Source: Gaiellaceae bacterium
GTDB lineage: Bacteria > Actinomycetota > Thermoleophilia > Gaiellales > Gaiellaceae
Reading direction: 5' to 3'
Assembly: GCA_046716705.1 (NCBI GenBank)
Contig: JBKJWA010000261.1
Span: 1 to 32,912 of the forward strand
DNA length: 32,912 nt
Shown: one piece after another, positions 6,077-32,174 of the stretch
Layout: each line of letters begins with the position of its first letter
Numbering within the stretch: the stretch's first letter is position 1
The notes under the pieces: generated by a model
Told to the model about the DNA's origin: nothing
The model's database searches: none
What the model saw: the letters and a program-made list of their open reading frames with translations, nothing else
Program-made: the position numbers and the translations under genes

Positions 6077-7591
6077 GTGGCAAGCGAGCCCGCGCCCTCG
6101 GAGCAGCCCGCCGGCGCGCCGGACGAACGCCGCGACCTCGGGGACATCCGTCGCGGCAGGCCGCTCGGCCTCGCCCGCGCCCAGCTGCGGACGATCACGT
6201 TCCGTGTCGGCGGCGTCGCCTGCCTCATCGCGCTCGACATCGTCGGCCTGACCATCGCCATCTATGCAGCTCTCGTCCTGCGGGACGTCTACTACGGCAA
6301 CACCGTGTTCTGGGGGATCCTCTGGGGAGAAGCGCTTCCCGACTATCTGCCGTTCGCCGCGCTTGTGACCGTGCTCGTGTTCTCGCAGGCGCGGCTCTAC
6401 GCGACGCGCGAGCGGCGGCCGGGGTTCGGGCGGATCGTCTCGTCGATCTTTCTCGTCGCGCTGCTGACGTTTGCCTTCGGCGTCGGCATCGGCCACGAGT
6501 TCTCGACCTTCGGCCTCATCCCCACGACCGCGGTCTTCGCCGTCGTGCTCATCGGCCTCTTCCGGGCGAGCTACGACGTCGTCACGCGCGAGATCTTCCA
6601 CCTCCTCGGCATCCGCCGCCGCGCGGTGCTCGTGGGCGAGGGCGACCACCTCGTCCACCTCTACAGGACTCTCGGCTCCGGCCGCAGCGGCATCGACTAC
6701 GAGCTCATCGGCGTCGTCACCGCCGAGGAGGAGTCCGACGTGCCGCTGCCCCGGCTCGGGAGCGCCGACTCGCTGCGGGCGGTCCTCGCCCAGCATCCGG
6801 TGGACGAGCTGATCGTCACCGACACGGACTTCGGCGAGCGCGAGCTGCTCGAGCTTGTCGACCAGGCGCATCGCTCGGGCGTTCGGATCCGCATCGCGCC
6901 GCGGACGACTGAGCTGCTGACGAAGCACGCCGACTACGTGCCGGGACAGGGCATCCCGCTGTTCGAGATCACACCGCCGGTGCTCGTCGGCACGGATTGG
7001 GCGCTGAAGCGCGGCTTCGACGTCGTCGTGTCGCTGCTCGTGCTCGTGGTCGGCCTGCCGCTGTGGCTCGCGATCGCCGCCGGTGTGAAGCTCTCCTCGA
7101 GGGGGCCTGTGCTCTACCGCGACCGCCGTGTCGGCCTCGGGGAGCGGGAGTTCGGGATGGTGAAGTTCCGGACGATGTACGCGGACGCCGCGGAGCAGCA
7201 GGCAGAGCTCGAGGAGGCGAACGAGGCAGCTGGGGCGCTCTTCAAGATCCGCGACGACCCGCGGGTGACGCCGCTCGGGCGGTTCCTGCGCCGGTACTCG
7301 CTCGACGAGATCCCGAACGTCGTCAACGTCCTGCGCGGCGAGATGAGCCTCGTCGGCCCGCGCCCGCTGCCGACGCGCGACTACAACCTCCTCGAGGAGT
7401 GGCACCTCAAGCGCTACCTCGTGTTGCCGGGGATGACGGGCCTTTGGCAGATCTCGGGGCGGTCGAACCTCTCCTTCGACGACCTCGTACGACTCGACTT
7501 CTACTACCTCGACAACTGGTCGATCTGGCTCGACATCTCGATCCTCGCGCGCACGATCCCGGCTGTGATCTCTAAGCGGGGCGCGTACTGA
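6077..7591 (+). CDS. polyprenyl-phosphate hexose-1-phosphate transferase (WbaP/WcaJ-like, bacterial sugar transferase family)
   Basis: 504 aa. The C-terminal catalytic domain has KFRTM, DPRVTPLGRFLRRYSLDEIPN and MSLVGPRP motifs. The N-terminal half has 4 TM helices plus a Rossmann-like VLVGEG...ELIGVV module. Confidence 0.9.
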   Translation: MASEPAPSEQPAGAPDERRDLGDIRRGRPLGLARAQLRTITFRVGGVACLIALDIVGLTIAIYAALVLRDVYYGNTVFWGILWGEALPDYLPFAALVTVLVFSQARLYATRERRPGFGRIVSSIFLVALLTFAFGVGIGHEFSTFGLIPTTAVFAVVLIGLFRASYDVVTREIFHLLGIRRRAVLVGEGDHLVHLYRTLGSGRSGIDYELIGVVTAEEESDVPLPRLGSADSLRAVLAQHPVDELIVTDTDFGERELLELVDQAHRSGVRIRIAPRTTELLTKHADYVPGQGIPLFEITPPVLVGTDWALKRGFDVVVSLLVLVVGLPLWLAIAAGVKLSSRGPVLYRDRRVGLGEREFGMVKFRTMYADAAEQQAELEEANEAAGALFKIRDDPRVTPLGRFLRRYSLDEIPNVVNVLRGEMSLVGPRPLPTRDYNLLEEWHLKRYLVLPGMTGLWQISGRSNLSFDDLVRLDFYYLDNWSIWLDISILARTIPAVISKRGAY

Positions 7592-7593
7592 TC

Positions 7594-8808
7594 GTGAAGC
7601 CTCCGAAGATCCTCGCCGTCGCGTCCGCTGTCGACCTCGACTTCCGCTACGGGTGCACGCCCGCGTGGTGGCAGCTTTGGAAGGGACTGCACGAGGCCGG
7701 CGTCGACCTCATCGTGACGCCTTACCGGGGCCGGCCCGTCGAGGCGCCTTGGTGGCGCACCGAGCCGAACCCGTGCTACCGCGAGGGTGAGCTCTTCGCC
7801 GGCGGCCGCGACCTTGTCGCCCGCATCAAGGGCGACACGCACATCCGCCGCGCAGAGGAGAGCCCGCCCGACACGGCCTCTGACCGCCTCGTTCGCGACG
7901 TCATCTGGCGCTGGGTGACGCCGCGCTGGCAGCGCCACCTGGAGCGGATCCTCGAGCGCGAGGGGAACGTCGACGCCGTTGTCGTCTTCACGGTGCCGAT
8001 GAGCCACCTGCGCGGCGTGGCGACGAGGCTCCGGGAGCGGTTCTCCGTACCGGTCGTCTTCTACGACGGCGACGTGCCGATGAGCCTGCCGGAGTTCGGC
8101 GGCATGGACACCGGCTTCAACTACTACCACGGCGCCGATCCCTCCGAGTACGACCTCGTTGTGTCGAATTCCGAGGGCGGCCTGGAACGGCTGCGCGAGC
8201 TCGGCGCGCGGCGCGCTGAGGCGGTCTTCTGGGGCGCAGACCCCGAGCTCTTCCGGCCGCTGCCGGTCGAGAAGCAGACGGACGTCTTCTTCTACGGGTA
8301 CGGCGAGAAGTTCCGCGCCGAATGGATCGACGCGCTCGTGATCGAGCCGAGCCGTCGTCTGCCCACCGTGGACTTCGCGCTCGGCGGCAACGACTTTCGT
8401 TCGGACACCGGCGCCGCTCGCTACGCGGGAGACGTACCGTTCAACGTCTTCTCGAACGCGATCTCTGCCGCACGCATCAACCTCAACATCACGCGGCTGC
8501 CGCATGCGACCGTGCCCGCCTCGTCGACTTCTCGGCCGTTCGAGTTGGCGATGTCCGGCGCGGCCATCGTCTCGAACCCGCACGAGGGTATCGAGCGCTG
8601 GTTCGAGCCCGGCCGCGAGTTGGTGGTCGTCGACGGCGCAGACGACGCCGTGGCGACGTACGAGGAGCTGCTGAGCGAGGGAGGACGCCTGGAGGAAATG
8701 GGTCGCGCAGCCCGCGAGCGCGCTCTCGACGAGCACACGTACCTCCATCGCGCCCGGCAACTGCTGGACCTTGTCGGCGCGCGCTCCGGTGCGGCGGTCG
8801 GTGGCTGA
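7594..8808 (+). CDS. CgeB-like / DUF3880-type glycosyltransferase-like protein
   Basis: 404 aa. GTG 7594 lies 2 nt after the upstream stop. The C-terminal block INLNITR...SRPFELAMSGAAIVSN...ERWFEPG...LV is typical of the CgeB-family GT-B C-domain. Confidence 0.7.
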   Translation: MKPPKILAVASAVDLDFRYGCTPAWWQLWKGLHEAGVDLIVTPYRGRPVEAPWWRTEPNPCYREGELFAGGRDLVARIKGDTHIRRAEESPPDTASDRLVRDVIWRWVTPRWQRHLERILEREGNVDAVVVFTVPMSHLRGVATRLRERFSVPVVFYDGDVPMSLPEFGGMDTGFNYYHGADPSEYDLVVSNSEGGLERLRELGARRAEAVFWGADPELFRPLPVEKQTDVFFYGYGEKFRAEWIDALVIEPSRRLPTVDFALGGNDFRSDTGAARYAGDVPFNVFSNAISAARINLNITRLPHATVPASSTSRPFELAMSGAAIVSNPHEGIERWFEPGRELVVVDGADDAVATYEELLSEGGRLEEMGRAARERALDEHTYLHRARQLLDLVGARSGAAVGG

Positions 8809-9538
8809 TCCGCGCCTCGCCGCGCTGCGGCGGCTCGCGATCGTGCCGGCGTACAACGAGGAGGGCTCGGTCGCGCGCGTGATCGACGAGATCCGCGACT
8901 TCGATCCCGGCTTCGAGGTCGTCGTTGTGGACGACGGGTCCCACGACAGCACGACCTCGGTTGCGGAGGAGAATGGCGCTCGCGTACTGACGCTCCCTTA
9001 CAACCTCGGCATCGGCGGCTCCGTGCAGACCGCCTTCCGCTACGCGCTCGAGAACGAGTTCGAGCTCGCCGTTCGCCTCGACGGGGATGGCCAGCACGAC
9101 GCCGCACACCTCCCGGCGCTGATAGCGCCGGTGCTCGACGGGAAGGCGGACGTCGCCGTCGGCTCGCGCTACCTCGGTGACGGTGGTTACCGGCAATCGG
9201 CGCACCGAAACATCGGCAACCGTATCCTCGCTGGGGCCGCCTCCGCCGTCACGGGGCAGAAGGTCACGGATCCGTCCTCCGGCTTCCAGGCGCTGAATCG
9301 CGACGCGATCGAGCTCTTCGCGAACGACTATCCGCACGAGTTCCCGGAGGTGGAGGCGACCGTGCTGGTGGCGAAGCACCGCCTGCGCCGGGTCGAGGTT
9401 CCCGCGCCGATGCGAGAGCGCCTGGCCGGTACGTCGTCCCACGGCGTCCTCAAGTCCACGTACTTTCTCGCCAAGGTGCTGCTCGCGCTCTTCGTCGCGC
9501 TCTTCCGCCGCCAGGCCGTTCCCGGGGACACGCGGTGA
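8771..9538 (+). CDS. GT2-family polyprenyl-phosphate glycosyltransferase (DPM1/GtrB/ArnC-like)
   Basis: LAIVPAYNEEGSV...VVVVDDGSHDST...RLDGDGQHD are GT-A signature motifs. The ORF-track start is TTG 8771. GTG 8789 or GTG 8801 (8-nt overlap with the upstream stop) are alternatives. Confidence 0.85.
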   Translation: MSARAPVRRSVADPRLAALRRLAIVPAYNEEGSVARVIDEIRDFDPGFEVVVVDDGSHDSTTSVAEENGARVLTLPYNLGIGGSVQTAFRYALENEFELAVRLDGDGQHDAAHLPALIAPVLDGKADVAVGSRYLGDGGYRQSAHRNIGNRILAGAASAVTGQKVTDPSSGFQALNRDAIELFANDYPHEFPEVEATVLVAKHRLRRVEVPAPMRERLAGTSSHGVLKSTYFLAKVLLALFVALFRRQAVPGDTR

Positions 9539-9897
9539 CGCCGCTCACCTTCTCGATCGCGGGCGCCATCGCCTCGGTGCTGCTCGTGCTCGTCGTGCTC
9601 GAGCTGATCCGCAAACGGCGCCTGAAGGAGCGCTACGCATTGCTTTGGCTCGTGACGGGGATCGTACTGCTCGTGATCTCGATCTGGCGATCGGCGACGG
9701 CGACGATCGCCGACTGGTTCGGCGTCGAGACGTACCCGCCCGCGGTGCTGTTCGCGGTGGCCGTGTTCTTCATCCTCCTCGTCCTGCTCGACTACTCGAC
9801 GGCGATCTCGAAGCTCGTCGACCAGAACGTCACGCTCTCTCAGCGGCTCGCGATCCTCGAGGAGAAGCTCAAGGATGAAAGGCGTGAAGAGTCGTGA
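9535..9897 (+). CDS. DUF2304-family small membrane protein
   Basis: 120 aa with three hydrophobic helices and a C-terminal amphipathic/coiled tail (LSQRLAILEEKLKDE). GTGA overlap with the GT2 stop. The GT2 plus DUF2304 pairing is characteristic. Confidence 0.8.
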   Translation: MTPLTFSIAGAIASVLLVLVVLELIRKRRLKERYALLWLVTGIVLLVISIWRSATATIADWFGVETYPPAVLFAVAVFFILLVLLDYSTAISKLVDQNVTLSQRLAILEEKLKDERREES

Positions 9898-19135: not shown

Positions 19136-20337
19136 AGGTCGCCTACTACTCGCCCCTGCCGCCGTCGCGCTCGGGGATCGCCGACTACAGCGAGCTGCTG
19201 CTGCCGGCGCTTCGGGAGAGGATCGACGTCGAGCTCGCTCGCCCCGGGCGCTTCCGCCGCGCGCCGAAGGCGGACGTCGCCCTCTACCACGTCGGCAACG
19301 ACCCGGAGGCGCACGGCTGGATCGTCGAAGCTCTTCGCCGCCGCCCAGGCGTCGTCGTGCTCCACGAGCTCGTCCTCCATCACCTCGTTGCGGGCATCAC
19401 CCTCGCCCGCGGAGACGCGGCCGGCTACCTCGCCGCAATGGAGGCAGAGCACGGCCTCGCCGGCCGGCTCCTCGCGTACGGCGTGCTCGACAACCGGATT
19501 CCCCCTCTGTGGGAGTCGCGGCCTCAGGACTTTCCGCTTGCGGGCGAGATCCTCAGGCTCTCGCAGAGCCTCGTCGTCCACTCGCGCTACGTGGAGGAAG
19601 GGGCACGGGCTGCCGGCTACGAGGGGCCGATCGCGCGCATTCCCCACCCTGCCTGGACGCACGAAGGGGTGACGACGACCGACGGAAAGCGCATCGGCTG
19701 CTTCGGCCACGTGAACGAGAGCAAGCGCATTCCGCAGCTGTACGCGGCGTTCGCGCGGCTCCGCGAACGGCTCCCCGAGGCGCGGCTGATCCTCGTCGGC
19801 GGCGCATCGCGACGGCTCGCCGATCTCGAGGCGCCCGAGGGCGTGACGCGTGAAGGATATGTCGGCGAGGAGCGGCTCTGGTCGCTCATGGAGTCCTGCG
19901 ATGTCGTCGTTTCACTGCGCTCGCCGACGATGGGCGAGACGTCGGGCACCGTCGTCCGCGCGCTATCGATCGGCAAGCCGCTCGTGGTCACCGACGTCGG
20001 CTGGTTCTCCGAGCTGCCTGACACGGTGGCCGTGAAAGTGGCCGCCGACGAGCACGAAATGGAGACGCTTGCCGCCGAGCTCGAGCGTCTGCTCGCCGAC
20101 GCCGAGGCGCGCCGAGCGATGAGCGCAGCCGCGCGCGAGCTTGCCAGGACCGAGCACGACGTCGAACGGGTCGCCGACCTCTACGTCGCAGCGCTCGAGG
20201 AGACAGCGGGAGGCGAGGGCGTGCGGGAAGCTGTTGCACGCGAGGTCGCGGGCGCCGCGGCCGACGTCGGCATCGGTCCTGACGATCCCGAGGCGAAGGA
20301 GCTGGCGGCCCGCCTGCGTGAGGCTGAGCTTGGCTAG
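19132..20337 (+). CDS. GT4/GT-B-family glycosyltransferase
   Basis: Begins MKVAYYSPLPPSRSGIADYS and contains GHVNESKRIPQL...SLRSPTMGETSGTVVRALSIGKPLVV. ATGA overlap with the upstream stop. Confidence 0.8.
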   Translation: MKVAYYSPLPPSRSGIADYSELLLPALRERIDVELARPGRFRRAPKADVALYHVGNDPEAHGWIVEALRRRPGVVVLHELVLHHLVAGITLARGDAAGYLAAMEAEHGLAGRLLAYGVLDNRIPPLWESRPQDFPLAGEILRLSQSLVVHSRYVEEGARAAGYEGPIARIPHPAWTHEGVTTTDGKRIGCFGHVNESKRIPQLYAAFARLRERLPEARLILVGGASRRLADLEAPEGVTREGYVGEERLWSLMESCDVVVSLRSPTMGETSGTVVRALSIGKPLVVTDVGWFSELPDTVAVKVAADEHEMETLAAELERLLADAEARRAMSAAARELARTEHDVERVADLYVAALEETAGGEGVREAVAREVAGAAADVGIGPDDPEAKELAARLREAELG

Positions 20338-22390
20338 TCGCCTCGCCCGCGTCCCGGCGTGGGTCTGGCTCGCGGGCATCGTCACGGTCTCGACGCTCGT
20401 CCGCTACGTGTTCGGCCGCGGCACGCCCGCGCCGTGGATCATGGTCGACGAGCTCATCTACTCCGAGCTCGCGAAGAGCCTCGCCGACTCGGGTCGCTTC
20501 CTCGTCCGCGGCGAGGCAACGGCGGCGTACGGCATCGTCTACCCCGCGCTGATAGCGCCGGCGTGGGCGCTCTTCGAGTCGGTGCCGCAGGCGTACGCGG
20601 CCGCAAAGGCGATCAACGCGCTCGTCATGTCGCTCGCGGCCGTGCCTGCGTACTTCCTCGCCCGCCGCGTGCTCGCCGAGCCGCTCGCGCTCGTGGCGGC
20701 GGCGCTGACGGTGGCCGTGCCGGCGATGGTCTACACGGCGACGCTGATGACGGAGAACGCGTTCTATCCGCTGTTTCTCTGTACGGCGCTTGCGATGGTG
20801 CTGTGGCTCGAGCGGCCGACGCCGCTGCGAACGGCCACTGTTCTCGGCGCCTGCCTCGTCGCGTACCTCACGCGCCAGCAAGCGGTCGCACTGCTGCCGG
20901 CGCTTCTGACCGCGCCGTTCTACGTCGCCGGGCGGGCCGCCTTCCGCCGCTACGCGCTCCTCTACGGCGTCGCTGCCGCAGGCTTCGTGGCGATCCTCGC
21001 CGTCCAGCTGGCAAGAGGCCGGTCGCCCCTTGGCATCTTCGGAGCGTACGAGGTTGCGGGCCGTGCCGACTACTCCGTTCGGGAGGTTGCGAAGTGGTTC
21101 GTGTACCACGTCGGAGAGCTCAGCCTCGCCCTCGGCGTGATTCCCTTCGCGGCGCTCATCCTCCTGGCGCTCATACCGCGGCAGTTGACGGAGCGCGACC
21201 GGACCTTCGTCGGCGCCGCCCTCAGCCTGTTCTTTTGGCTCGTGCTCGTAGCGGCCGTGTTCGCCTCGGAGCAGACGTTCCGCATCTCGGAGCGAAACAC
21301 GTTCTACGTCGGATCACTGTTCCTTATCGCGCTGCTCGTGTGGGTCGAGCGCGGAGCGCCGAGACCTCAGGTAGCAACAGCGATTGCGGCATTCCTCGCC
21401 GCCGGGCTGCCGCTCGTCATCCCGTACGAGGACTTCATCGGACTCAACGCGGTGTCAGACACCGCGGCGCTGCTCCCGCTCGGGTGGCTCGTCGAACAGG
21501 GACTGTCCCTGTCGAATGCAGATCTGGTTGTCCTCGCCGGCTGCCTCGTCGCTGCTGCGGCCTTCCTCTTTGTTCCCCGGCGGTACGCGCTCGCGCTGCC
21601 GGCGTTCGTGCTCCTGTACTTCGCGCTCTCCCAGCATCCGATCGTGGATCAGCACCGGTTCCGCTCGGCGCAACACCTGTTCGGCGGGATCGCGATAGAA
21701 GATCGCGATTGGATCGACCGCTCGGTGGGGCGGGATGCCGACGTGGCGTTCCTGTGGACCGGCACCTCCGACAAGTTCACGATCTGGGAGAACGAGATCT
21801 TCAGCCGCAGCATCGGCGACATCTACACGACGGGACCAGCCGTTCCCGGCGGGCTGGCGCAGACGCCTGTCTCGATCGACAGAAGCACGGGCTACGTGCG
21901 CCGGCCCGACGGAGACCGCGTGCCGGTGTCGTTCGTGGTCACCGACGCGACCGGTGAGTTCGGAGGCACTCTGGTCGGCGAAGACGGGATCAAGCGCCTG
22001 GCTCTCTATCGGGTTCACGGCCCGCTCCGCCAAGTTGCCTTCGTCGACGGGCTCTATCCACAGGACACGTGGTCGGGCAAGAACGTGACCTACACGCGCC
22101 ACGAGTGTCGTGGTGGGACGCTCGAGGTCGAGGTGCAGAGCGACGCGGCCCTGTTCGATACACCGAACATCCTCAGTGCCCGAGTGGGCGGCCGCGTGAT
22201 CAAACGCGTGATCGTCGACCCCCGGGTCACGTCGGTGCAGATGCGCATTCCGATCGAGTCGGAGAACGGGAAATGCGTCGTACGGTTCGAGGTCGACCGC
22301 ACGGCGATACCGCGCGAGGTGACCGATGGCGAGAACCCGGACCCGCGCCAGCTGGGCCTGCACTTCAACCGCTTCACGTACGAGCCGTGA
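20318..22390 (+). CDS. large polytopic GT-C-fold glycosyltransferase with C-terminal extracytoplasmic domain
   Basis: About 690 aa. MVDELIYSELAKSLA first-loop Asp-Glu motif, AVPAYFLARRVL, TENAFYP, more than 10 TM helices and a roughly 250-aa beta-rich tail. GTG 20318 is proposed; TTG 20330 is the alternative. Paralogue of 26190-28355. Confidence 0.8.
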   Translation: MRLSLASRLARVPAWVWLAGIVTVSTLVRYVFGRGTPAPWIMVDELIYSELAKSLADSGRFLVRGEATAAYGIVYPALIAPAWALFESVPQAYAAAKAINALVMSLAAVPAYFLARRVLAEPLALVAAALTVAVPAMVYTATLMTENAFYPLFLCTALAMVLWLERPTPLRTATVLGACLVAYLTRQQAVALLPALLTAPFYVAGRAAFRRYALLYGVAAAGFVAILAVQLARGRSPLGIFGAYEVAGRADYSVREVAKWFVYHVGELSLALGVIPFAALILLALIPRQLTERDRTFVGAALSLFFWLVLVAAVFASEQTFRISERNTFYVGSLFLIALLVWVERGAPRPQVATAIAAFLAAGLPLVIPYEDFIGLNAVSDTAALLPLGWLVEQGLSLSNADLVVLAGCLVAAAAFLFVPRRYALALPAFVLLYFALSQHPIVDQHRFRSAQHLFGGIAIEDRDWIDRSVGRDADVAFLWTGTSDKFTIWENEIFSRSIGDIYTTGPAVPGGLAQTPVSIDRSTGYVRRPDGDRVPVSFVVTDATGEFGGTLVGEDGIKRLALYRVHGPLRQVAFVDGLYPQDTWSGKNVTYTRHECRGGTLEVEVQSDAALFDTPNILSARVGGRVIKRVIVDPRVTSVQMRIPIESENGKCVVRFEVDRTAIPREVTDGENPDPRQLGLHFNRFTYEP

Positions 22391-26189: not shown

Positions 26190-28355
26190 TCAGCGCGACC
26201 CGCGGGGGACAAACAGGTATCCGACCTGCGCCCCGAGCTCGCGCCGGTCGGATTCGCCCTCGTAGTCCGACGGCGAGAACGTCGGCCGCACCGTCACCTC
26301 CACGCGGAAGGGCGGCGCCGGCGCCGGAATGACGAACGTCGCCCGCGAGAGGCTGTGGATCGTCCAGCGCCGTGTCGCGGTCACCTTGCCGAGGTGCGGC
26401 TGCTTGTCGGCGCCCTTGACGAGCGTTCCGACGCGGATCAGCACCCGGCCGGGCTTGTCGGGCCCGCCCCAAGCCCACCGGCCGATCCTCACGACCATGT
26501 TCCCTCCCTTGCCGCTCGGCGAGGCGTACTGGTTGTACGCGCTCTCGGCGCCCATCCAGCCGTCGACGAAGATGCCTGTCTCGGCGTGAGCGAGGCGCAG
26601 CGGCCCGTCGAGCTTGTAGACGAACCAGCGGCCGGTCTCGGGCGGTCGCCCGACGAGCTCGCCGTCCACGTCGACGCCCCGCTCGGCGAGGACATAGCGC
26701 GCTCCCGGGTCGGGGGCCAGCCGGCCGTCCGTCGCTACGAGGTCGGGCGTGAGAACCGGCCCGGGGCCGGGCGCCGTGCCGTCGATGCTCCACACGTGCT
26801 TCAGCGAACGGTTCCAGAACTCGGTCAGCCAGACCCCGAGGGCCGCGCCGGTGTTGATGTTCTGCCCGAGGTACACGACCGGCTCGCCGCCCGTGATGTC
26901 GTCGAGCCACGTGAGCGGCTTCGGGTAGTTACGTGTGATGAGGTCGCCCGCGTCGTTCGAGTACTTGGCAGCGGAGATCTGGCCCGTGAGCGTCCAGGCT
27001 AAGACGAGCGCAGCCGTCAGCCCGACCACCGCCCGCGCGGCCGTCCGGCGGGCTCCGAGCAATGTCGGCAGGACGAGCAGCAGCACCGACACTGCGAGCG
27101 TCATGATCAGTGCCCACTGGACGGCGCTGTCGGTGAACGAGAAGTTGCGGTTGGACATCTGCGCGATGGCGAGACCGAGCGCGTCCGAGTACGGGACGTT
27201 CTCGAGCGCGTAGTTGGCCGACACGAGCAGGTACGCGACGAAGGCGGCCGCGGCCGCGAGGGGCACCCAGCGCAGCTGCGGCCGCTCGAGCCAGAGGGCG
27301 GTGCCGACGAAGACGAGCGGGATGAGATAGATGAGGTTCCGCTCGACGATGACCGTGCCGAAAGCCGTCGAGAGATACGAGGCCTTGACGGCGGTGTAGA
27401 GGCCGAAGCACAGGAGTGCGGCGGAAAGGAGCGCGGTGAACGCGCGCAGCGCCGGCGTCCGCTCCTCGCCTTTGGGACGGATGAGCCCCGCGAGGGCGGC
27501 CACGACCGGCAGGACACCCAGGCCGATGACGAAGGCGCCGCCGGCCCAGACGCCGTACTCGATCATCCGCCCGCGGTAGTGGCCGGTAGCGATCAGCCAG
27601 CTCTGTGAGAAGTTGCCCGCAACGGCTGAGAAGAAGATGACCGCGCCCGTTGTCAGCACCACGGCGCCGACCCAGTCCCAGGCCGTCCACGACGCGCGCC
27701 AGCGCCGTCCGGCGTCGCTCGTGAGGAAGTAGAAGAACCCGGCGAGCGGGAACGCGACGGCGATCACGCCCAGCTCGGCCCGCACGAGCGGGGCGACGAG
27801 ACACGCGACCACCGCGCCGGCGATCCACCAGCGCGTCTGCGCCACGATCGCCTTGGCGATAAGGAAGAAGCAGAGAGCCGCGTACGGATACGCGAGCGCC
27901 TCTTCTGAGATGACCTGCGAGTAGGCGAGCGCGGGCACGGTTGCGGTGGCAGTCGCGGCGAACAGCCCCGCGGGCTTGCCGACGATCGTCCGCGCGAGGA
28001 AGTACGTGGGGAAGACGACCGCCGTCATCGTGAAGACGCCGATGTAGCGGACGAGGTCGTACGCGGATGACGTCGAGTCGATCCACCAGGCGGGCGCGGT
28101 TAGGTACGTGTAGAGCGTCTCGAAGAAGTGCGGCTCGCCGCGCCTGGCCGCCTCACCGGTCTCCGCGATGCTCCGCGACAGCTGCGTCAGCTCGAGCTCG
28201 TCGGTGAAGAGCCACGGCGACGTGTGCCGCCACGACTGGTACGCATAAAGCGATGCGAGCCAGATGAAGATCGTCGCGAGTGGCAGGGCGGCGTACGCGC
28301 GATCGAGCCAGGTGCGGTCGCCGGCAGCCGCCGCCGGGGCGGCGGGGGACGTCAT
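26190..28355 (-). CDS. large polytopic GT-C-fold glycosyltransferase with C-terminal extracytoplasmic domain
   Basis: 721 aa. FTDELELTQLSRSIA, VFPTYFLARTIV and SEEALAYP align with the 20318-22390 protein. More than 10 TM helices and a beta-rich tail. ATG 28355 forms an ATGA overlap with the upstream stop. Confidence 0.8.
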   Translation of the reverse strand: MTSPAAPAAAAGDRTWLDRAYAALPLATIFIWLASLYAYQSWRHTSPWLFTDELELTQLSRSIAETGEAARRGEPHFFETLYTYLTAPAWWIDSTSSAYDLVRYIGVFTMTAVVFPTYFLARTIVGKPAGLFAATATATVPALAYSQVISEEALAYPYAALCFFLIAKAIVAQTRWWIAGAVVACLVAPLVRAELGVIAVAFPLAGFFYFLTSDAGRRWRASWTAWDWVGAVVLTTGAVIFFSAVAGNFSQSWLIATGHYRGRMIEYGVWAGGAFVIGLGVLPVVAALAGLIRPKGEERTPALRAFTALLSAALLCFGLYTAVKASYLSTAFGTVIVERNLIYLIPLVFVGTALWLERPQLRWVPLAAAAAFVAYLLVSANYALENVPYSDALGLAIAQMSNRNFSFTDSAVQWALIMTLAVSVLLLVLPTLLGARRTAARAVVGLTAALVLAWTLTGQISAAKYSNDAGDLITRNYPKPLTWLDDITGGEPVVYLGQNINTGAALGVWLTEFWNRSLKHVWSIDGTAPGPGPVLTPDLVATDGRLAPDPGARYVLAERGVDVDGELVGRPPETGRWFVYKLDGPLRLAHAETGIFVDGWMGAESAYNQYASPSGKGGNMVVRIGRWAWGGPDKPGRVLIRVGTLVKGADKQPHLGKVTATRRWTIHSLSRATFVIPAPAPPFRVEVTVRPTFSPSDYEGESDRRELGAQVGYLFVPRGSR

Positions 28356-30169
28356 TCGACCGCGGCGCCCAACGCGACGAGTGGATCTACGTCGAGGTCC
28401 CTGCGCACGAATCTGCAGGGTACTTGCGCCCGCTTGCATGCTTGCACCACCCCGTCGAGGACGTCGCGCGGGGCCGCCGGGATCGTCACGAGCACGAGAT
28501 CGGGGCGGGACTGCGCAAGGACGCGCTCGATGTCGCGGAGCGAGCCGAGCACTGGCACGCCCTGCATGCGCCGACTCCGGAGCCTGGCGTCGTCGTCCAC
28601 GAAGCCGACGACGTGCTCACCCGGCGTCTCGCGCAGCTCGCGCAACAGGCTCCGGCCGCTGCGACCGGCGCCGACGAGCAGCGTCCGCCGCCGCTCGTGC
28701 CGGTCGCGGAAGGACGCATGGGCGCGGAACATCGCGCGTTCGGCGAAGCGAGAAGCGCCCACGAGGACGAGCGCGATGAGCGCGTCGAGCACGTAGATCC
28801 GCTGCGGGAAGTCCCCGAAGGGACGGCTCGTGAACCACACGATCCCGTACGCGAGCCCCTGCGAGACGATGACGGCGAAGGCGATCGCGGCTGCCTCGCG
28901 CGCGCCGGCGAAGCGCCAGACACCGCTGTAGAGGCCGGCGGGGATGAAACAGAGGTAGCGCGCGAAGAGGATCGCCGGCAGCGAGACGAGGAAGATGTGC
29001 TTCTCGTAGTCCGTGCCCGAGCCGTCCACGAACAGCAGGTACGCGATCGTGAACGAGGCGGTGATGAGGGCGAAGTCGACGAGCACCTCCACGAGCCGGC
29101 GAGGGCTGAGGAGGATGCGCCACAGGGCAACGGGACGGCCGTCGACCACGCGCTCGCCCTCGTCGATGTCCGTCAGGAAGCCGGCGAGCTGGACGAGCAG
29201 CGCGAACGTCACGAGCACGCCGACGAGCGTCACCCACCCGTTGTCGAGCCCCGAGTAGGCGAGGCTCGTCAGCCCGAGCCCGGCGGCGATCGCAGTCAGC
29301 AGGACGACGGTGCCCTTCTCGGAGATGCCGCTGCGCACGAGCCGGTGGGACGCGTGGTCGCGGCCTCCCTGGTGGATCGGCCGCCCCTCCACGAGCCGGA
29401 CTGCGGTGACGAGCGCCGTGTCGAGGATCGGTACCGCGAGCACGAGCATCGGGATGATGAGAGTGGCGATCGTCGATTCCGCCACCTTCCAGCTCGTCGC
29501 GAGGCCGAGTGCTGCCAGGGTGAGCCCGATCACCTGGCTGCCCGAGTCGCCCATGAACACAGCAGCGGGCTTTCGGGGGCGGAAGTTGAACAGGAGGAAG
29601 CCGGCCACCGCGAGCGCCAGTGCGAGCGAAACCACGAGCAGGAGCTCGTCGTCGTGGATCCAGACGGCGTCGATCGCGAAGAAGACGGCGGCCACGACGG
29701 CGAGGCTCCCGGCCAGCCCGTCCATGTTGTCGAGGAGGTTGAAGGCGTTCGTGATCGCCACGAGCCACAGCAGGCCGAGGGCGGTGGCGGCGACGTCGTT
29801 CTCGACGATCTCCACGCGGATCCCCGACGCGAGCACGACGCCGGCCGCGGCGAACTGGCCTGCGAGCTTCACCGGTGGCGGCAGTGAGCGCAGATCGTCG
29901 AGCAGGCCGAACGCGAAGATGACCGCTGCCCCGCCGGCGATGCCCCCGAGCTCCCAAGTCGGCTCGATCGCGCCTGCGAGGAGACAGGCACCGATCCCTG
30001 CGAGCAGGCCGAGGAAGATGCCGACGCCGCCGTGGAGCGGTGTCTCCTGCTGGTGCCAGCGGTCGCCCGACGGGGTGGCCACGAGGCGGCCGCCAAGGCC
30101 GTTTCGCAGCAGCGCCCAGATCGTCAGCGCGGCGACCGGGAGGGCGACGATGGCTGCGACGGCGCTCAT
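28352..30169 (-). CDS. WecA/MraY-family polyprenyl-phosphate N-acetylhexosamine-1-phosphate transferase fused to a C-terminal 4-TM plus Rossmann-like (WbaP/CapD N-terminal-type) module
   Basis: Residues 1 to about 332 carry FGLLDDL, NAFNLLDNMDGL, FMGDSGS and GGRDHASHRL, the hallmark PNPT motifs. Residues about 345-605 have 4 further TM helices, YSGVWRFAG, then TLLVGAGRSGRSLLRELRETPGEHVVGFVDDD...VPVLG...DLVLVTIP. Confidence 0.9.
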   Translation of the reverse strand: MSAVAAIVALPVAALTIWALLRNGLGGRLVATPSGDRWHQQETPLHGGVGIFLGLLAGIGACLLAGAIEPTWELGGIAGGAAVIFAFGLLDDLRSLPPPVKLAGQFAAAGVVLASGIRVEIVENDVAATALGLLWLVAITNAFNLLDNMDGLAGSLAVVAAVFFAIDAVWIHDDELLLVVSLALALAVAGFLLFNFRPRKPAAVFMGDSGSQVIGLTLAALGLATSWKVAESTIATLIIPMLVLAVPILDTALVTAVRLVEGRPIHQGGRDHASHRLVRSGISEKGTVVLLTAIAAGLGLTSLAYSGLDNGWVTLVGVLVTFALLVQLAGFLTDIDEGERVVDGRPVALWRILLSPRRLVEVLVDFALITASFTIAYLLFVDGSGTDYEKHIFLVSLPAILFARYLCFIPAGLYSGVWRFAGAREAAAIAFAVIVSQGLAYGIVWFTSRPFGDFPQRIYVLDALIALVLVGASRFAERAMFRAHASFRDRHERRRTLLVGAGRSGRSLLRELRETPGEHVVGFVDDDARLRSRRMQGVPVLGSLRDIERVLAQSRPDLVLVTIPAAPRDVLDGVVQACKRAQVPCRFVRRDLDVDPLVALGAAVE

Positions 30170-30176
30170 GGCGAAA

Positions 30177-30182
30177 ACGGTA
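30177..30182 (-). promoter_or_regulatory. putative -10 box TACCGT upstream of the WecA-fusion gene
   Basis: The minus strand reads TACCGTTTTCGCC-ATG (7-nt gap). Nearly the same string, TACCGTTTCTCTTCC-ATG, precedes asnB (complement of 5340-5354). Confidence 0.3.
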
Positions 30183-30235
30183 GTGAGCTGCTGTTAAGCA
30201 CGTGTGTGGCCGTCCTTTCCGGTACAGAGTACGCC

Positions 30236-31186
30236 GTGCCCGTGACGCCCACGCTGCTCGAGCTGCTGCGCTGCTCCGTCTGCCGCAGCTCACTCGATGC
30301 GGACGGCTCAACGCTGCGCTGCCGCAGCTGCGGCGCAGCGTTCCCTGTGGAAGACGGCATGCCGCGGATGCTCGACGACCGCCTGCCCGGCATCCATGCC
30401 AAGCGGCGCGAGATCGAGGGCTGGCCGGCGATGGCGAAGGCGCAGGGCTGGTACGAGCGCGACGACGAGATCGACGCCCATCTCCCGTACCTCAACCGCG
30501 ATCTCGGCTGGGACGACAAGAACTGGCGCGCGACGGAGCACTCGTTCTCGCTGCTGCTCGATCACTACGTGCGTCCGGGCATGCGGGTGCTCGAGGTGGG
30601 AGCGGCGAAGGCGTGGGCGGCGCAGCACGTAGTGCCGCTCGGCTGCGAGTACGTGGCGACGGACATCCTCGCCGACCCGGTGATCGGACTAGGTCGTGGT
30701 GCCTTCTACGAGGCGCGGGTCGGCGCGTTCGGCCGCGTCCAGGCCGACGGGGAGCACCTTCCCTTCGCCTCCGAGGCATTCGACGTTACGTACTGCGTCG
30801 CCGCGCTCCACCATGCGCTCGACCTGACGGCGATGGTGCGCGAGATGGCGCGCGTCACCCGCAAGGGCGGCTGGGTTTGCGCGCTGAACGAGGGCACGCG
30901 GGCCCTCGGCGCCGCGGCCGACGTGCCCGACCAGGCCGAAGAGAAGGGCTTCGGCATCAACGAGCACGTGCACACGCTCTACGCGTACCTCTGGGCGTTC
31001 GCGCGCTCGGCCCTCGTCGTGCGGCGCGTCGAGCAGGCAGAAGGGTACGGCGAGCTCGCCGGCCGGAGGATCGCCGGCCGCCTCCTGCGCCTGCCCGGCA
31101 TGGGGCGCAGCGCCGCGACGTTCTTCTCCCAGACCTGCCACGGGTACTCAGGCGTCTCCGTCTACGCTCGTAGACTGCTCTCGTGA
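30236..31186 (+). CDS. SAM-dependent methyltransferase with N-terminal Trm112-like zinc ribbon
   Basis: LLRCSVCRSSL...LRCRSCGAAFPVEDGMPRML has a CxxC...CxxC pattern. It is followed by VLEVGAAKAW, a Methyltransf_11-like core (ADGEHLPFASEAFD) and ARVTRKGGWV. Start is GTG 30236; GTG 30206 and 30242 are alternatives. Confidence 0.8.
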   Translation: MPVTPTLLELLRCSVCRSSLDADGSTLRCRSCGAAFPVEDGMPRMLDDRLPGIHAKRREIEGWPAMAKAQGWYERDDEIDAHLPYLNRDLGWDDKNWRATEHSFSLLLDHYVRPGMRVLEVGAAKAWAAQHVVPLGCEYVATDILADPVIGLGRGAFYEARVGAFGRVQADGEHLPFASEAFDVTYCVAALHHALDLTAMVREMARVTRKGGWVCALNEGTRALGAAADVPDQAEEKGFGINEHVHTLYAYLWAFARSALVVRRVEQAEGYGELAGRRIAGRLLRLPGMGRSAATFFSQTCHGYSGVSVYARRLLS

Positions 31187-31302
31187 CGTCTGCCGATCAG
31201 AGCACGGCTTGCGCGTTCCTCGGCCGTCGCTCGCAAGGGAGACAAGGGCGCGGCGCGAAGGACAGTACGTCGGGTACGGCCAAGCGCCGAGCCCGCAGGA
31301 TC

Positions 31303-31349
31303 CCGCCGCGAGCGGCGGCAGGCTACGGCGGAGGGCGGCCTCGCCGCCC
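31303..31349 (+). other. two GC-rich stem-loops in the wzm upstream spacer
   Basis: CCGCCG-cgag-CGGCGG (31303-31318) and GGGCGGC-ctc-GCCGCCC (31333-31349). Neither is followed by a T-tract. Confidence 0.3.
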
Positions 31350-31376
31350 GGGAGCCGCAGCCGGCGAGGGGCGCGC

Positions 31377-32174
31377 ATGAGCGTCTACGCGGATCTGATC
31401 CGCTACCGCGAGCTCTTCGGCAGCCTCTTCCGCCGCGATCTGCGCGCCCGCTACAAGGGCACGATCTTCGGCGTCGCCTGGTCGCTCGTGAACCCGATCA
31501 TGCTGGCCGCGATCTACGTCCTCGTCTTCTCGCTGCTCTGGGAGGTGACGTCGATCGACCGCTACCCGCTGTTCCTGCTCTGCGGGCTCAGCGTGTGGCT
31601 CTTCGTCTCGTCGTCCCTCACCGGCGCCGCGCGGTCGATGCTCGACTACGCAGAGCTGATCAAGAAGGTGCGCTTTCCGCGGCAGCTCGTGGCGTTCTCG
31701 GTCGTCGCGACACAGCTTGTGCCGTTTGCCGTGTTGCTCGGCGGGTTGATCGTCGTCAACGCGATCGTCCTCGACCGGACGCGCGACACCGTGTTGCTGT
31801 CGATTCCCGTCGCGGCCGCGATCGTCGTGCTCGTGGCCGGTATGGCGCTGGCGGTCGCCGCGGCGAACGTGGTCTTCCGCGACGTGGAGCACCTGCTGGC
31901 GGCGCTCCTCCTCCCGTGGTTCTTCCTCACGCCGATCCTCTACTCGCTTGAGGAGTTGCCCGGCGGCCTCGAGGACTACGACCTCGTCGTCGATCTCCTG
32001 CGTTGGGCAAACCCGCTCACGCCGCCGCTCTACGCGTTGCGCGATCCGCTCTTCTACGGCGAAATGCCGGCGGCGGGTGACGTGATCTACCTCGTGGTGG
32101 CAGCTGCCGTGTCGCTCGCGATCGGCGCGCTCGTCTTCCGGCGGATCGACGACAGCATCGCCGTCGAGCTCTAG
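31377..32174 (+). CDS. wzm: ABC-2-type polysaccharide/teichoic-acid export permease (Wzm/TagG/KpsM-like)
   Basis: Begins MSVYADLIRYRELFGSLFRRDLRARYKGTIFGVAWSLVNP, the canonical Wzm N-terminus, followed by 6 TM helices. GAGGGG lies 5 nt upstream of ATG 31377. 38 of the first 40 codons end in G/C. Confidence 0.85.
   Translation: MSVYADLIRYRELFGSLFRRDLRARYKGTIFGVAWSLVNPIMLAAIYVLVFSLLWEVTSIDRYPLFLLCGLSVWLFVSSSLTGAARSMLDYAELIKKVRFPRQLVAFSVVATQLVPFAVLLGGLIVVNAIVLDRTRDTVLLSIPVAAAIVVLVAGMALAVAAANVVFRDVEHLLAALLLPWFFLTPILYSLEELPGGLEDYDLVVDLLRWANPLTPPLYALRDPLFYGEMPAAGDVIYLVVAAAVSLAIGALVFRRIDDSIAVEL

Follow-up and report, generated by a model that had tools for sequence, protein, structure and literature searches.

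A gene on the 32,912-nucleotide contig JBKJWA010000261.1 of a Gaiellaceae bacterium (GenBank assembly GCA_046716705.1; this whole stretch is referred to here as the window) encodes, as read from its sequence, a single polypeptide of 15 transmembrane (TM) helices in which a catalytically intact WecA-type polytopic phosphoglycosyl transferase (PGT) is joined at its C-terminus to the PF13727 module, a bundle of four TM helices followed by a Rossmann-like domain. A preliminary description of the window had parsed this open reading frame (ORF), at 28352-30169, in the same way, and Pfam, motifs, hydropathy and AlphaFold2 (AF2) all agreed with that parsing. The fusion is common in sequence databases and uncharacterized, while its two parts, the PNPT-superfamily transferase and the PF13727 module, are each already known. 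In the reading that we favor, to which we give a probability of roughly 0.55, the protein would be an initiating transferase whose module regulates or assembles the enzyme by dimerization and/or uridine-nucleotide binding, and the architecture would have originated by fusion of a WecA-type gene with a dehydratase gene.

Pfam identified two domains, Glycos_transf_4 (PF00953) over residues 77-224, with 104.6 bits (cut-off 27, E = 6.7e-30), and CoA_binding_3 (PF13727) over residues 417-588, with 55.5 bits (cut-off 25, E = 9.1e-15). The second match confirms that the module is of the family seen on WbaP-type transferases and on CapD/PglF/WbpM dehydratases; GFO_IDH_MocA and TrkA_N were matched weakly. 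All of the PNPT catalytic motifs were present (DD91-92, NAFNLLDNMDGL at 141-152, GDSGS207-211, and DHASHR271-276), and the module half carried GAGRSG500-505 and VGFVDDD521-527. The NCBIfam model TIGR02380 (ECA_wecA) aligned to residues 28-328 with 98.2 bits, under its equivalog cut-off of 326.05, so that orthology to Escherichia coli WecA and specificity for N-acetylglucosamine (GlcNAc) are not established. The layout obtained from hydropathy and from the AF2 model (a monomer built from a 66-sequence alignment, with a mean predicted local distance difference test score, pLDDT, of 74.9 and a predicted template modeling score, pTM, of 0.59) consisted of 11 TM helices, a linker at residues 333-361, four TM helices at about 356-488, and a beta-alpha-beta domain at 494-594, with the four module helices appearing as hydropathy peaks at 362-380, 392-410, 426-444, and 458-476 and as AF2 helices at 356-380, 387-408, 423-448, and 457-488. 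In Foldseek searches of this model against the PDB, the N-terminal part matched MraY and human GPT (5jnq, 6oyh, 8cxr, DPAGT1) at target TM-scores of 0.6-0.77, and the C-terminal part matched 3nkl, a structure of the accessory domain alone from a Vibrio dehydratase of the WbpM type, at a target TM-score of 0.71, as well as Rex-family Rossmann domains and Salmonella enterica WbaP (8t53), the last over 248 aligned columns. By its PF00953 score, its loop motifs, its 11 TM helices and its MraY/GPT fold, the N-terminal part falls within the PNPT superfamily; by its PF13727 score, the four preceding TM helices and a fold like that of 3nkl and WbaP (8t53 and 9s7s), the C-terminal part falls with the module.

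As first described, no dehydratase or sugar-transferase domain follows the module: residue 605 ends the protein directly past the Rossmann domain, and the stop codon, TGA at 28352-28354, shares an ATGA with the start codon of the next gene. There was no Pfam match in the protein to Bac_transf (PF02397), which sets it apart from the WbaP-type large PGTs (Lg-PGTs), or to Polysacc_synt_2 (PF02719), which sets it apart from the PglF/WbpM/CapD dehydratases. In the model, all of the catalytic loops and the C-terminus of the 11-TM part face the cytoplasm, and the Rossmann domain of the module is likewise cytoplasmic, a topology that is self-consistent because 11 helices end the WecA part in the cytoplasm and four more return the chain there. 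The 11 TM helices of E. coli WecA leave its C-terminus in the cytoplasm, and the 10 of MraY leave its C-terminus in the periplasm; if these topologies are correct, only the 11-TM type could take the module at its C-terminus. The predicted topology agrees with the N-in orientation of the module given in the 2024 eLife paper on the WbaP structure (PMC10942596).

The preliminary description had allowed that a frameshift or stop might split the gene in two, and frameshifts were indeed seen in some related loci from long-read metagenome-assembled genomes (MAGs; L034, L038, L039, and L041). That a wecA gene and a gene for a small membrane protein were merged here by a sequencing or assembly frameshift was, however, ruled out by codon-position GC, homolog lengths and intact related loci, and its probability is negligible. 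The GC content at third codon positions was 0.87-0.94 in one frame across all four segments of the ORF, continuous over the junction. The 120 best database homologs, drawn from independent JGI, ENA, and NCBI assemblies and several of them named Gaiellaceae, were 63-91% identical, nearly all 594-613 aa long, and carried both Pfam domains. The fusion was a single uninterrupted ORF in 75 of the 81 related loci fetched, the exceptions being truncated contigs, frameshifted long-read MAGs, or the divergent protein of Desulfonema magnum, a cultured organism with a complete genome, which is itself a 661-aa ORF with both Pfam domains.

A phmmer search against 1.84 billion cluster representatives returned 1801 matches at E<=1e-30. 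Complete fusions made up 99 of the 150 best representatives (30-55% identity, each a separate 50%-identity cluster), and both Pfam domains were confirmed in five spot-checked two-domain examples (32-45% identity). GTDB was scanned, at one genome per species, with two subfamily-specific peptide patterns, one drawn from the PNPT signature loop and one, GG[RKT]DHxSHRL, that retrieved the family; at least 590 relatives were found. The best 80 of these loci all covered most of the query length, and 78 of them matched to residue 553 or beyond, the two exceptions being a cut contig and a frameshifted MAG. Carriers among the best 80 were Actinomycetota (Gaiellaceae, Thermoleophilia, Miltoncostaea), Planctomycetota (including Ca. 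Scalindua), Ca. Omnitrophota, Nitrospinota, Chloroflexota, Desulfobacterota/Thermodesulfobacteriota (including the complete genome of Desulfonema magnum 4be13), Acidobacteriota (Pyrinomonadaceae, Blastocatellales), and one Heliomicrobium MAG. The architecture is, on these matches, a large and old family in at least eight phyla, and is therefore no peculiarity of this window. The possibility raised at the outset that such fusions would turn out to be common and already characterized was thus borne out in its first half, the family being common, and not in its second. A midpoint-rooted neighbor-joining (NJ) tree of 145 fusions broadly tracked taxonomy, which suggests an old family that has been maintained vertically over a long time.

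The taxon labels of three carriers appear to disagree with the protein tree. The loci L020, on a 'Pseudomonadota' MAG contig, and L031, on a 'Ca. Limnocylindria' contig, carried a Gaiellales-type fusion with its partner gene (see below) at 57-62% identity to the window, and the fusion of the Heliomicrobium MAG (L075) nested within the Acidobacteriota clade of the protein tree; these mismatches may be binning errors or horizontal transfer. Two further relatives, P0190 (928 aa) and P0171 (936 aa), had about 330-350 extra C-terminal residues, with tetratricopeptide (TPR) repeats in one of the two and no Pfam match in the other.

Across the family, both halves of the protein were conserved. In 95 diverse fusions, the PNPT motifs were either invariant or conserved to at least 90%, and the linker ranged from 29 to 61 aa with a median of 36.5 (100 fusions). 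In the module, G500 was invariant, and across phyla, with overall identity near 30%, the residues A501, G505, D525, D526, G537, and G542 were each at least 90% conserved, indicating that the PF13727 module of the fusion is intact and selectively maintained. Annotation pipelines ignore the module and name the homologs 'UDP-GlcNAc:undecaprenyl-phosphate GlcNAc-1-P transferase', that is, plain WecA, or 'hypothetical protein', the JGI name being based on homology only. The carriers include Gaiellales, Omnitrophota, Planctomycetota, Pyrinomonadaceae, and Desulfobacterales, abundant environmental groups with poorly understood envelopes.

Comparison with other modules places that of the fusion on the PglF/WbpM/CapD dehydratase branch and not on the WbaP branch. 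In a phmmer search of the PDB, the window protein found 3nkl (E = 5e-6) and no WbaP structure, and a profile built from 47 fusion modules scored 66 bits on 3nkl (E = 2.5e-17), compared to 33 bits on recent WbaP entries (E = 3e-7) and 23 bits on 8t53, aligning over the four-TM-helix and DUF region of WbaP (positions 19-225), where DUF is the Rossmann-like domain of PF13727. When 72,556 annotated plasmids were searched with the module by tblastn, 18 matches were obtained, of which 13 fell within genes annotated as 'nucleoside-diphosphate sugar epimerase/dehydratase' and not one within a gene for a sugar transferase. Two unannotated Rhizobium plasmid matches proved to be CoA_binding_3 + Polysacc_synt_2 proteins of 637 and 675 aa, whose modules scored 77 and 68 bits against that of the fusion, so that all plasmid matches with an identifiable gene were dehydratases. 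A control search of the plasmids with the module of the WbaP-like protein encoded in the window gave no match and was uninformative. Matches of fusion residues 363-589 to the N-terminal halves of the NCBIfam models EPS_sugtrans, WcaJ, and WbaP were considered as a sign of WbaP-type origin and rejected, since a genuine Rhizobium dehydratase module matches EPS_sugtrans equally well (72.8 vs 78.7 bits).

The preliminary description had further held that both initiators of the window carry the same module. The WbaP-like protein does contain the module family (CoA_binding_3 + Bac_transf by Pfam), so this is correct at the level of the Pfam family; the two modules are nevertheless distant and lie on different branches, with 29% identity over 203 aa (BLASTP, pairwise E = 0.002, 25 bits) and no phmmer match of the fusion module to the WbaP-like module of its own genome. 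As a separate observation, the recent WbaP entries 9s7s, 9s8l, 30us, and 30wc match the module profile over both the four-helix bundle and the DUF, and would be better templates for modeling the module than 8t53.

Relatives with a third domain bear on the origin of the fusion. Four proteins of 936-981 aa (the metagenome proteins P0136, P0153, and P0159, and L048:1811-4756) have the order Glycos_transf_4 + CoA_binding_3 + Polysacc_synt_2, a domain content that joins a polytopic PGT to an entire membrane dehydratase of the PglF/WbpM type; in the NJ tree they form one clade nested among the two-domain fusions. In the simplest history, a WecA/WbpL-like gene would have joined a full-length membrane dehydratase gene, the short-chain dehydrogenase/reductase (SDR)-type dehydratase domain then being absent in most lineages and kept or regained in one clade; wbpL and wbpM are adjacent in the O-antigen clusters of Pseudomonas aeruginosa. 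The three-domain proteins link a polytopic PGT to the dehydratase that would make its 6-deoxy-N-acetylhexosamine (6-deoxy-HexNAc) donor, and by the Rosetta-stone argument this speaks for WbpL-like and WbpM-like enzymes being functionally coupled. The same relatives, together with the position of the module on the dehydratase branch and the end of the window protein directly after the Rossmann domain, would also fit a module that is only an evolutionary remnant of a former WecA-dehydratase fusion, at most an inert membrane anchor or folding aid. This we consider improbable: the two-domain form is the majority across at least eight phyla, the three-domain proteins are a single clade nested within it, and an invariant GxGxxG glycine with a near-invariant DD ending beta2, retained at about 30% identity, is unexpected of a vestige.

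In the favored reading, a HexNAc-1-phosphate would be moved from a uridine diphosphate (UDP)-sugar to polyprenyl phosphate with release of uridine monophosphate (UMP). The cell-envelope glycan initiated in this way would be extended by the neighboring glycosyltransferase (GT) family 4 and GT-C-like enzymes and exported by the ABC-2/Wzt-type transporter encoded beside the fusion gene. The module would add no reaction of its own; it would dimerize the enzyme and/or bind a uridine nucleotide (UMP, UDP, or a UDP-linked precursor) at the conserved GxGxxG/acidic beta2 site, so that initiation would be throttled as product or competing precursors build up. This proposal is modeled on the role put forward for the WbaP module, and WecA-type enzymes likewise release UMP. 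Most of the dimer interface of S. enterica WbaP is made by the DUF; UMP, UDP, and UTP stabilize the DUF on its own, and the full-length enzyme is inhibited by UMP with a half-maximal inhibitory concentration of 4.1 uM and a curve that suggests an allosteric site (PMC10942596). In Myxococcus EpsZ, the response regulator EpsW acts at the DUF interface (PMC12802240), and full-length CapD is reportedly inhibited by UDP-MurNAc-pentapeptide and lipid II (PMC6441080). Uridine-nucleotide sensing or dimerization is the most economical role for the module because the WecA-, WbaP-, and PglF-type enzymes share only the handling of UDP-sugars and UMP at the membrane.

Several points weigh against this reading. 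The proposed activity, sugar specificity, oligomeric state and ligand are inferences for every member of the fusion family, and the data on nucleotide binding were obtained on the WbaP branch, whereas the fusion module lies on the dehydratase branch. The domain-swapped homodimer of WbaP needs a beta-hairpin, and the short terminal strands of the fusion model (585-589 and 592-594) are conserved within the Gaiellales clade and not in the wider family; the AF2 model itself is of moderate confidence and monomeric. The direction of change in the dehydratase domain, loss or gain, rests on the midpoint-rooted NJ tree. Finally, the ligand could be a dinucleotide, because the module profile resembles NAD(H)-sensing Rex (35 bits, E = 9.5e-8). 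A Rex-like domain that binds NAD(H) or CoA and couples initiation to the redox or energy state of the cell would be in keeping with this profile match, with the Foldseek matches to Rex and with the weak GFO_IDH_MocA and TrkA_N matches, and a GxGxxG motif with an acidic residue ending beta2 is the classic dinucleotide-binding signature. We nonetheless consider such a redox or dinucleotide sensor improbable, as UDP-sugar and not redox chemistry is what the three classes of host enzyme have in common, with the exception of the dehydratases, which bind NAD in a different domain.

The only conserved neighbor of the fusion gene is that of a GT-C-like membrane protein of about 720 aa, which by homology mapping starts within a few bases of the fusion stop in about 39 Gaiellales/Thermoleophilia-type loci. 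This partner family had no Pfam match and a profile search of the PDB gave no match; its members (L001-L041) have an invariant D-E loop after TM1, a weak STT3-like match and a conserved C-terminal extracytoplasmic domain, and the window encodes two of them, which are clear paralogs (hhalign E = 1.8e-40). Because of the D-E loop, the STT3-like match and the paralogy to a PMT_2-like protein, the partner is probably of the GT-C type, and the family is probably an undescribed family of GT-C-like glycosyltransferases. Outside the actinobacterial clade, a partner homolog was absent from every fusion locus examined, and the genes downstream of the fusion varied, encoding Wzy_C/O-antigen-ligase-like proteins in 5 of 28 loci, TPR proteins in 7 of 28, and a dehydratase in 1 of 28. 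Conservation of the module cannot depend on a partner that is absent outside Actinomycetota.

These neighborhoods bear on whether the module is mainly a docking platform that recruits pathway proteins (the GT-C-like partner, whose gene is translationally coupled to the fusion, a soluble enzyme that modifies UDP-sugars, or, as in the preliminary description, the WbaP-like enzyme, here through a DUF-DUF heterodimer), with nucleotide sensing secondary. In WbaP the DUF mediates contact between proteins and in EpsZ it is the site of EpsW action, the partner gene adjoins the fusion in the actinobacterial loci and is joined to it as a single 1336-aa ORF in one MAG, and both initiators of the window carry a PF13727 module. 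On the other side, the module is conserved in the non-actinobacterial loci, all of which lack the partner and have the variable downstream genes listed above; the two modules of the window are 29% identical and on separate branches; and the most conserved feature of the module is its nucleotide-binding motif. We regard docking as a rather doubtful primary role, and conservation gives no support to docking between the two initiators of the window. A split dehydratase, in which the module would dock a soluble Polysacc_synt_2 protein encoded just downstream, was also rejected as a general rule, with such a gene in 1 of 28 non-actinobacterial loci and none in the window.

In full-text literature, with subscription literature and InterPro architecture tables, which surely list the combination, lying outside the search, no description of a PF00953 + PF13727 protein was found, in line with the earlier impression that this architecture on a polytopic PNPT had not been described; one paper cites both models, as separate search models. 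In the publications found, the module is borne by two groups, the large monotopic PGTs and the PglF-like dehydratases, a distribution that has been called puzzling and for which UMP feedback was proposed (PMC10942596). Three known groups, and one set of bifunctional enzymes, are the closest comparisons. Residues 1-332 resemble WecA, TagO, and WbpL in PF00953, the DD, NxxNxxDxxDGL, and GDxGS motifs, the His-rich loop, the 11 TM helices and the MraY/GPT fold, and the same reaction is predicted (UDP-HexNAc + polyprenyl-P -> polyprenyl-PP-HexNAc + UMP). Characterized members of that group are stand-alone proteins of about 330-400 aa, whereas the fusion carries an extra 270 aa (four TM helices and the Rossmann domain). 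With PglF, WbpM, and CapD (Cap5D), which are membrane UDP-GlcNAc 4,6-dehydratases and the closest branch by sequence, the fusion shares their N-terminal four-TM + PF13727 module, and some fusion relatives keep Polysacc_synt_2 after it; the window protein differs in having no Polysacc_synt_2/SDR domain and in placing the module after a transferase and not before a dehydratase. With WbaP, WcaJ, CpsE, and EpsZ, it has in common PF13727 with its four-helix bundle and the role of an initiating, UMP-releasing PGT, and the functional data on the module used here come from the WbaP/EpsZ group and the report of CapD inhibition. The catalytic domain of that group is unrelated (Bac_transf, with a monotopic re-entrant helix), the two PGT superfamilies differ in catalytic mechanism according to the cited literature, and their module is N-terminal, while that of the fusion is C-terminal and on a different branch. 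The Bi-PGTs of the Imperiali group are similar in fusing an initiating PGT to another pathway domain (PMC10942596, PMC11626204); they combine monotopic PGTs with catalytic domains, in contrast to the polytopic PGT with a non-catalytic module described here, and the three-domain relatives add a complete dehydratase to a polytopic PGT.

The WecA-type polytopic initiator is a third host class for the PF13727 module, and it shares with the other two only UDP-sugars, UMP and the membrane context. This strengthens the idea of a uridine-nucleotide-sensing or dimerizing module over that of an aid to one particular chemistry, and makes it testable. More tentatively, the four-helix + Rossmann module might be a portable, general-purpose sensor or dimerizer for membrane enzymes that consume UDP-sugars, a generalization that we regard as possible rather than probable. 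If it is true, feedback by UMP or UDP-linked precursors on glycan initiation would be a conserved control principle spanning both PGT superfamilies and the first sugar-modifying step, and the fusion family would be a clean natural experiment on the shared role of the module.

Table 1 Features of the fusion gene and of its surroundings in the window
Feature	Position	Strand	Basis or remark
Fusion protein, 605 aa	28352..30169	-	Complete ORF, ATG start, stop codon included
WecA/MraY-type polytopic phosphoglycosyl transferase domain, residues 1-332, 11 TM	29174..30169	-	PF00953, Foldseek, helices
DD91-92, cytoplasmic loop after TM3	29894..29899	-	D92 invariant, D91 at least 90% in 95 diverse fusions
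NAFNLLDNMDGL (141-152), PNPT signature loop	29714..29749	-	N141, N144, D147, D150, G151 invariant
DHASHR (271-276), subfamily-specific loop at the WecA HIHH / MraY HHH position	29342..29359	-	D271, H272 invariant
Cytoplasmic linker, residues 333-361	29087..29173	-	Low model confidence, pLDDT <50 at 335-343
Four-TM-helix bundle of the accessory module, residues 362-488	28706..29086	-	Hydropathy and AF2 helices
Cytoplasmic Rossmann-like domain ('DUF' of PF13727), residues 489-605	28355..28705	-	PF13727, 3nkl matches
721-aa polytopic membrane protein, ATG overlaps fusion stop (ATGA)	26190..28355	-	Partner conserved in actinobacterial clade
WbaP-like large monotopic PGT (CoA_binding_3 + Bac_transf), second initiator	6077..7591	+	Pfam, NCBIfam
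749-aa PMT_2-like membrane protein, partner paralog	20141..22390	+	Weak PMT_2 match
Trm112p-like zinc ribbon + class I methyltransferase, divergent from fusion	30032..31186	+	Pfam
ABC-2 (Wzm-like) permease, divergent from fusion, just downstream of methyltransferase	31209..32174	+	Pfam
GT2 (Glycos_transf_2) gene, then overlapping small DUF2304 membrane protein gene	8771-9897	+	

The window as a whole is a glycan-assembly locus, with several GT4 enzymes, one GT2, PMT_2/GT-C-like membrane proteins, methyltransferases, an AsnB-like amidotransferase, an epimerase/dehydratase-family protein, and the WbaP-like initiator. A 66%-identical homolog of the fusion on a 1.5-Mb contig has the same neighborhood, including an ABC_tran + Wzt_C gene, and in locus L001 both ABC2_membrane and ABC_tran + Wzt_C genes adjoin the fusion. 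The single ORF of 1336 aa mentioned above, which spans the WecA part, the module and the GT-C-like partner, lies at L040:3953-7963 in the long-read MAG MFD10007.bin.1.1, and it may be an artefact of an indel at the ATGA junction, because the sister assemblies L038 and L041 are frameshifted. On the other side of the fusion gene, the listed start of the divergent methyltransferase ORF overlaps the 5' end of the fusion, and for this reason its true start is probably downstream of 30169. Given its place beside the ABC-2 permease gene, the zinc-ribbon methyltransferase could be the chain terminator of an ABC-transporter-dependent glycan pathway.

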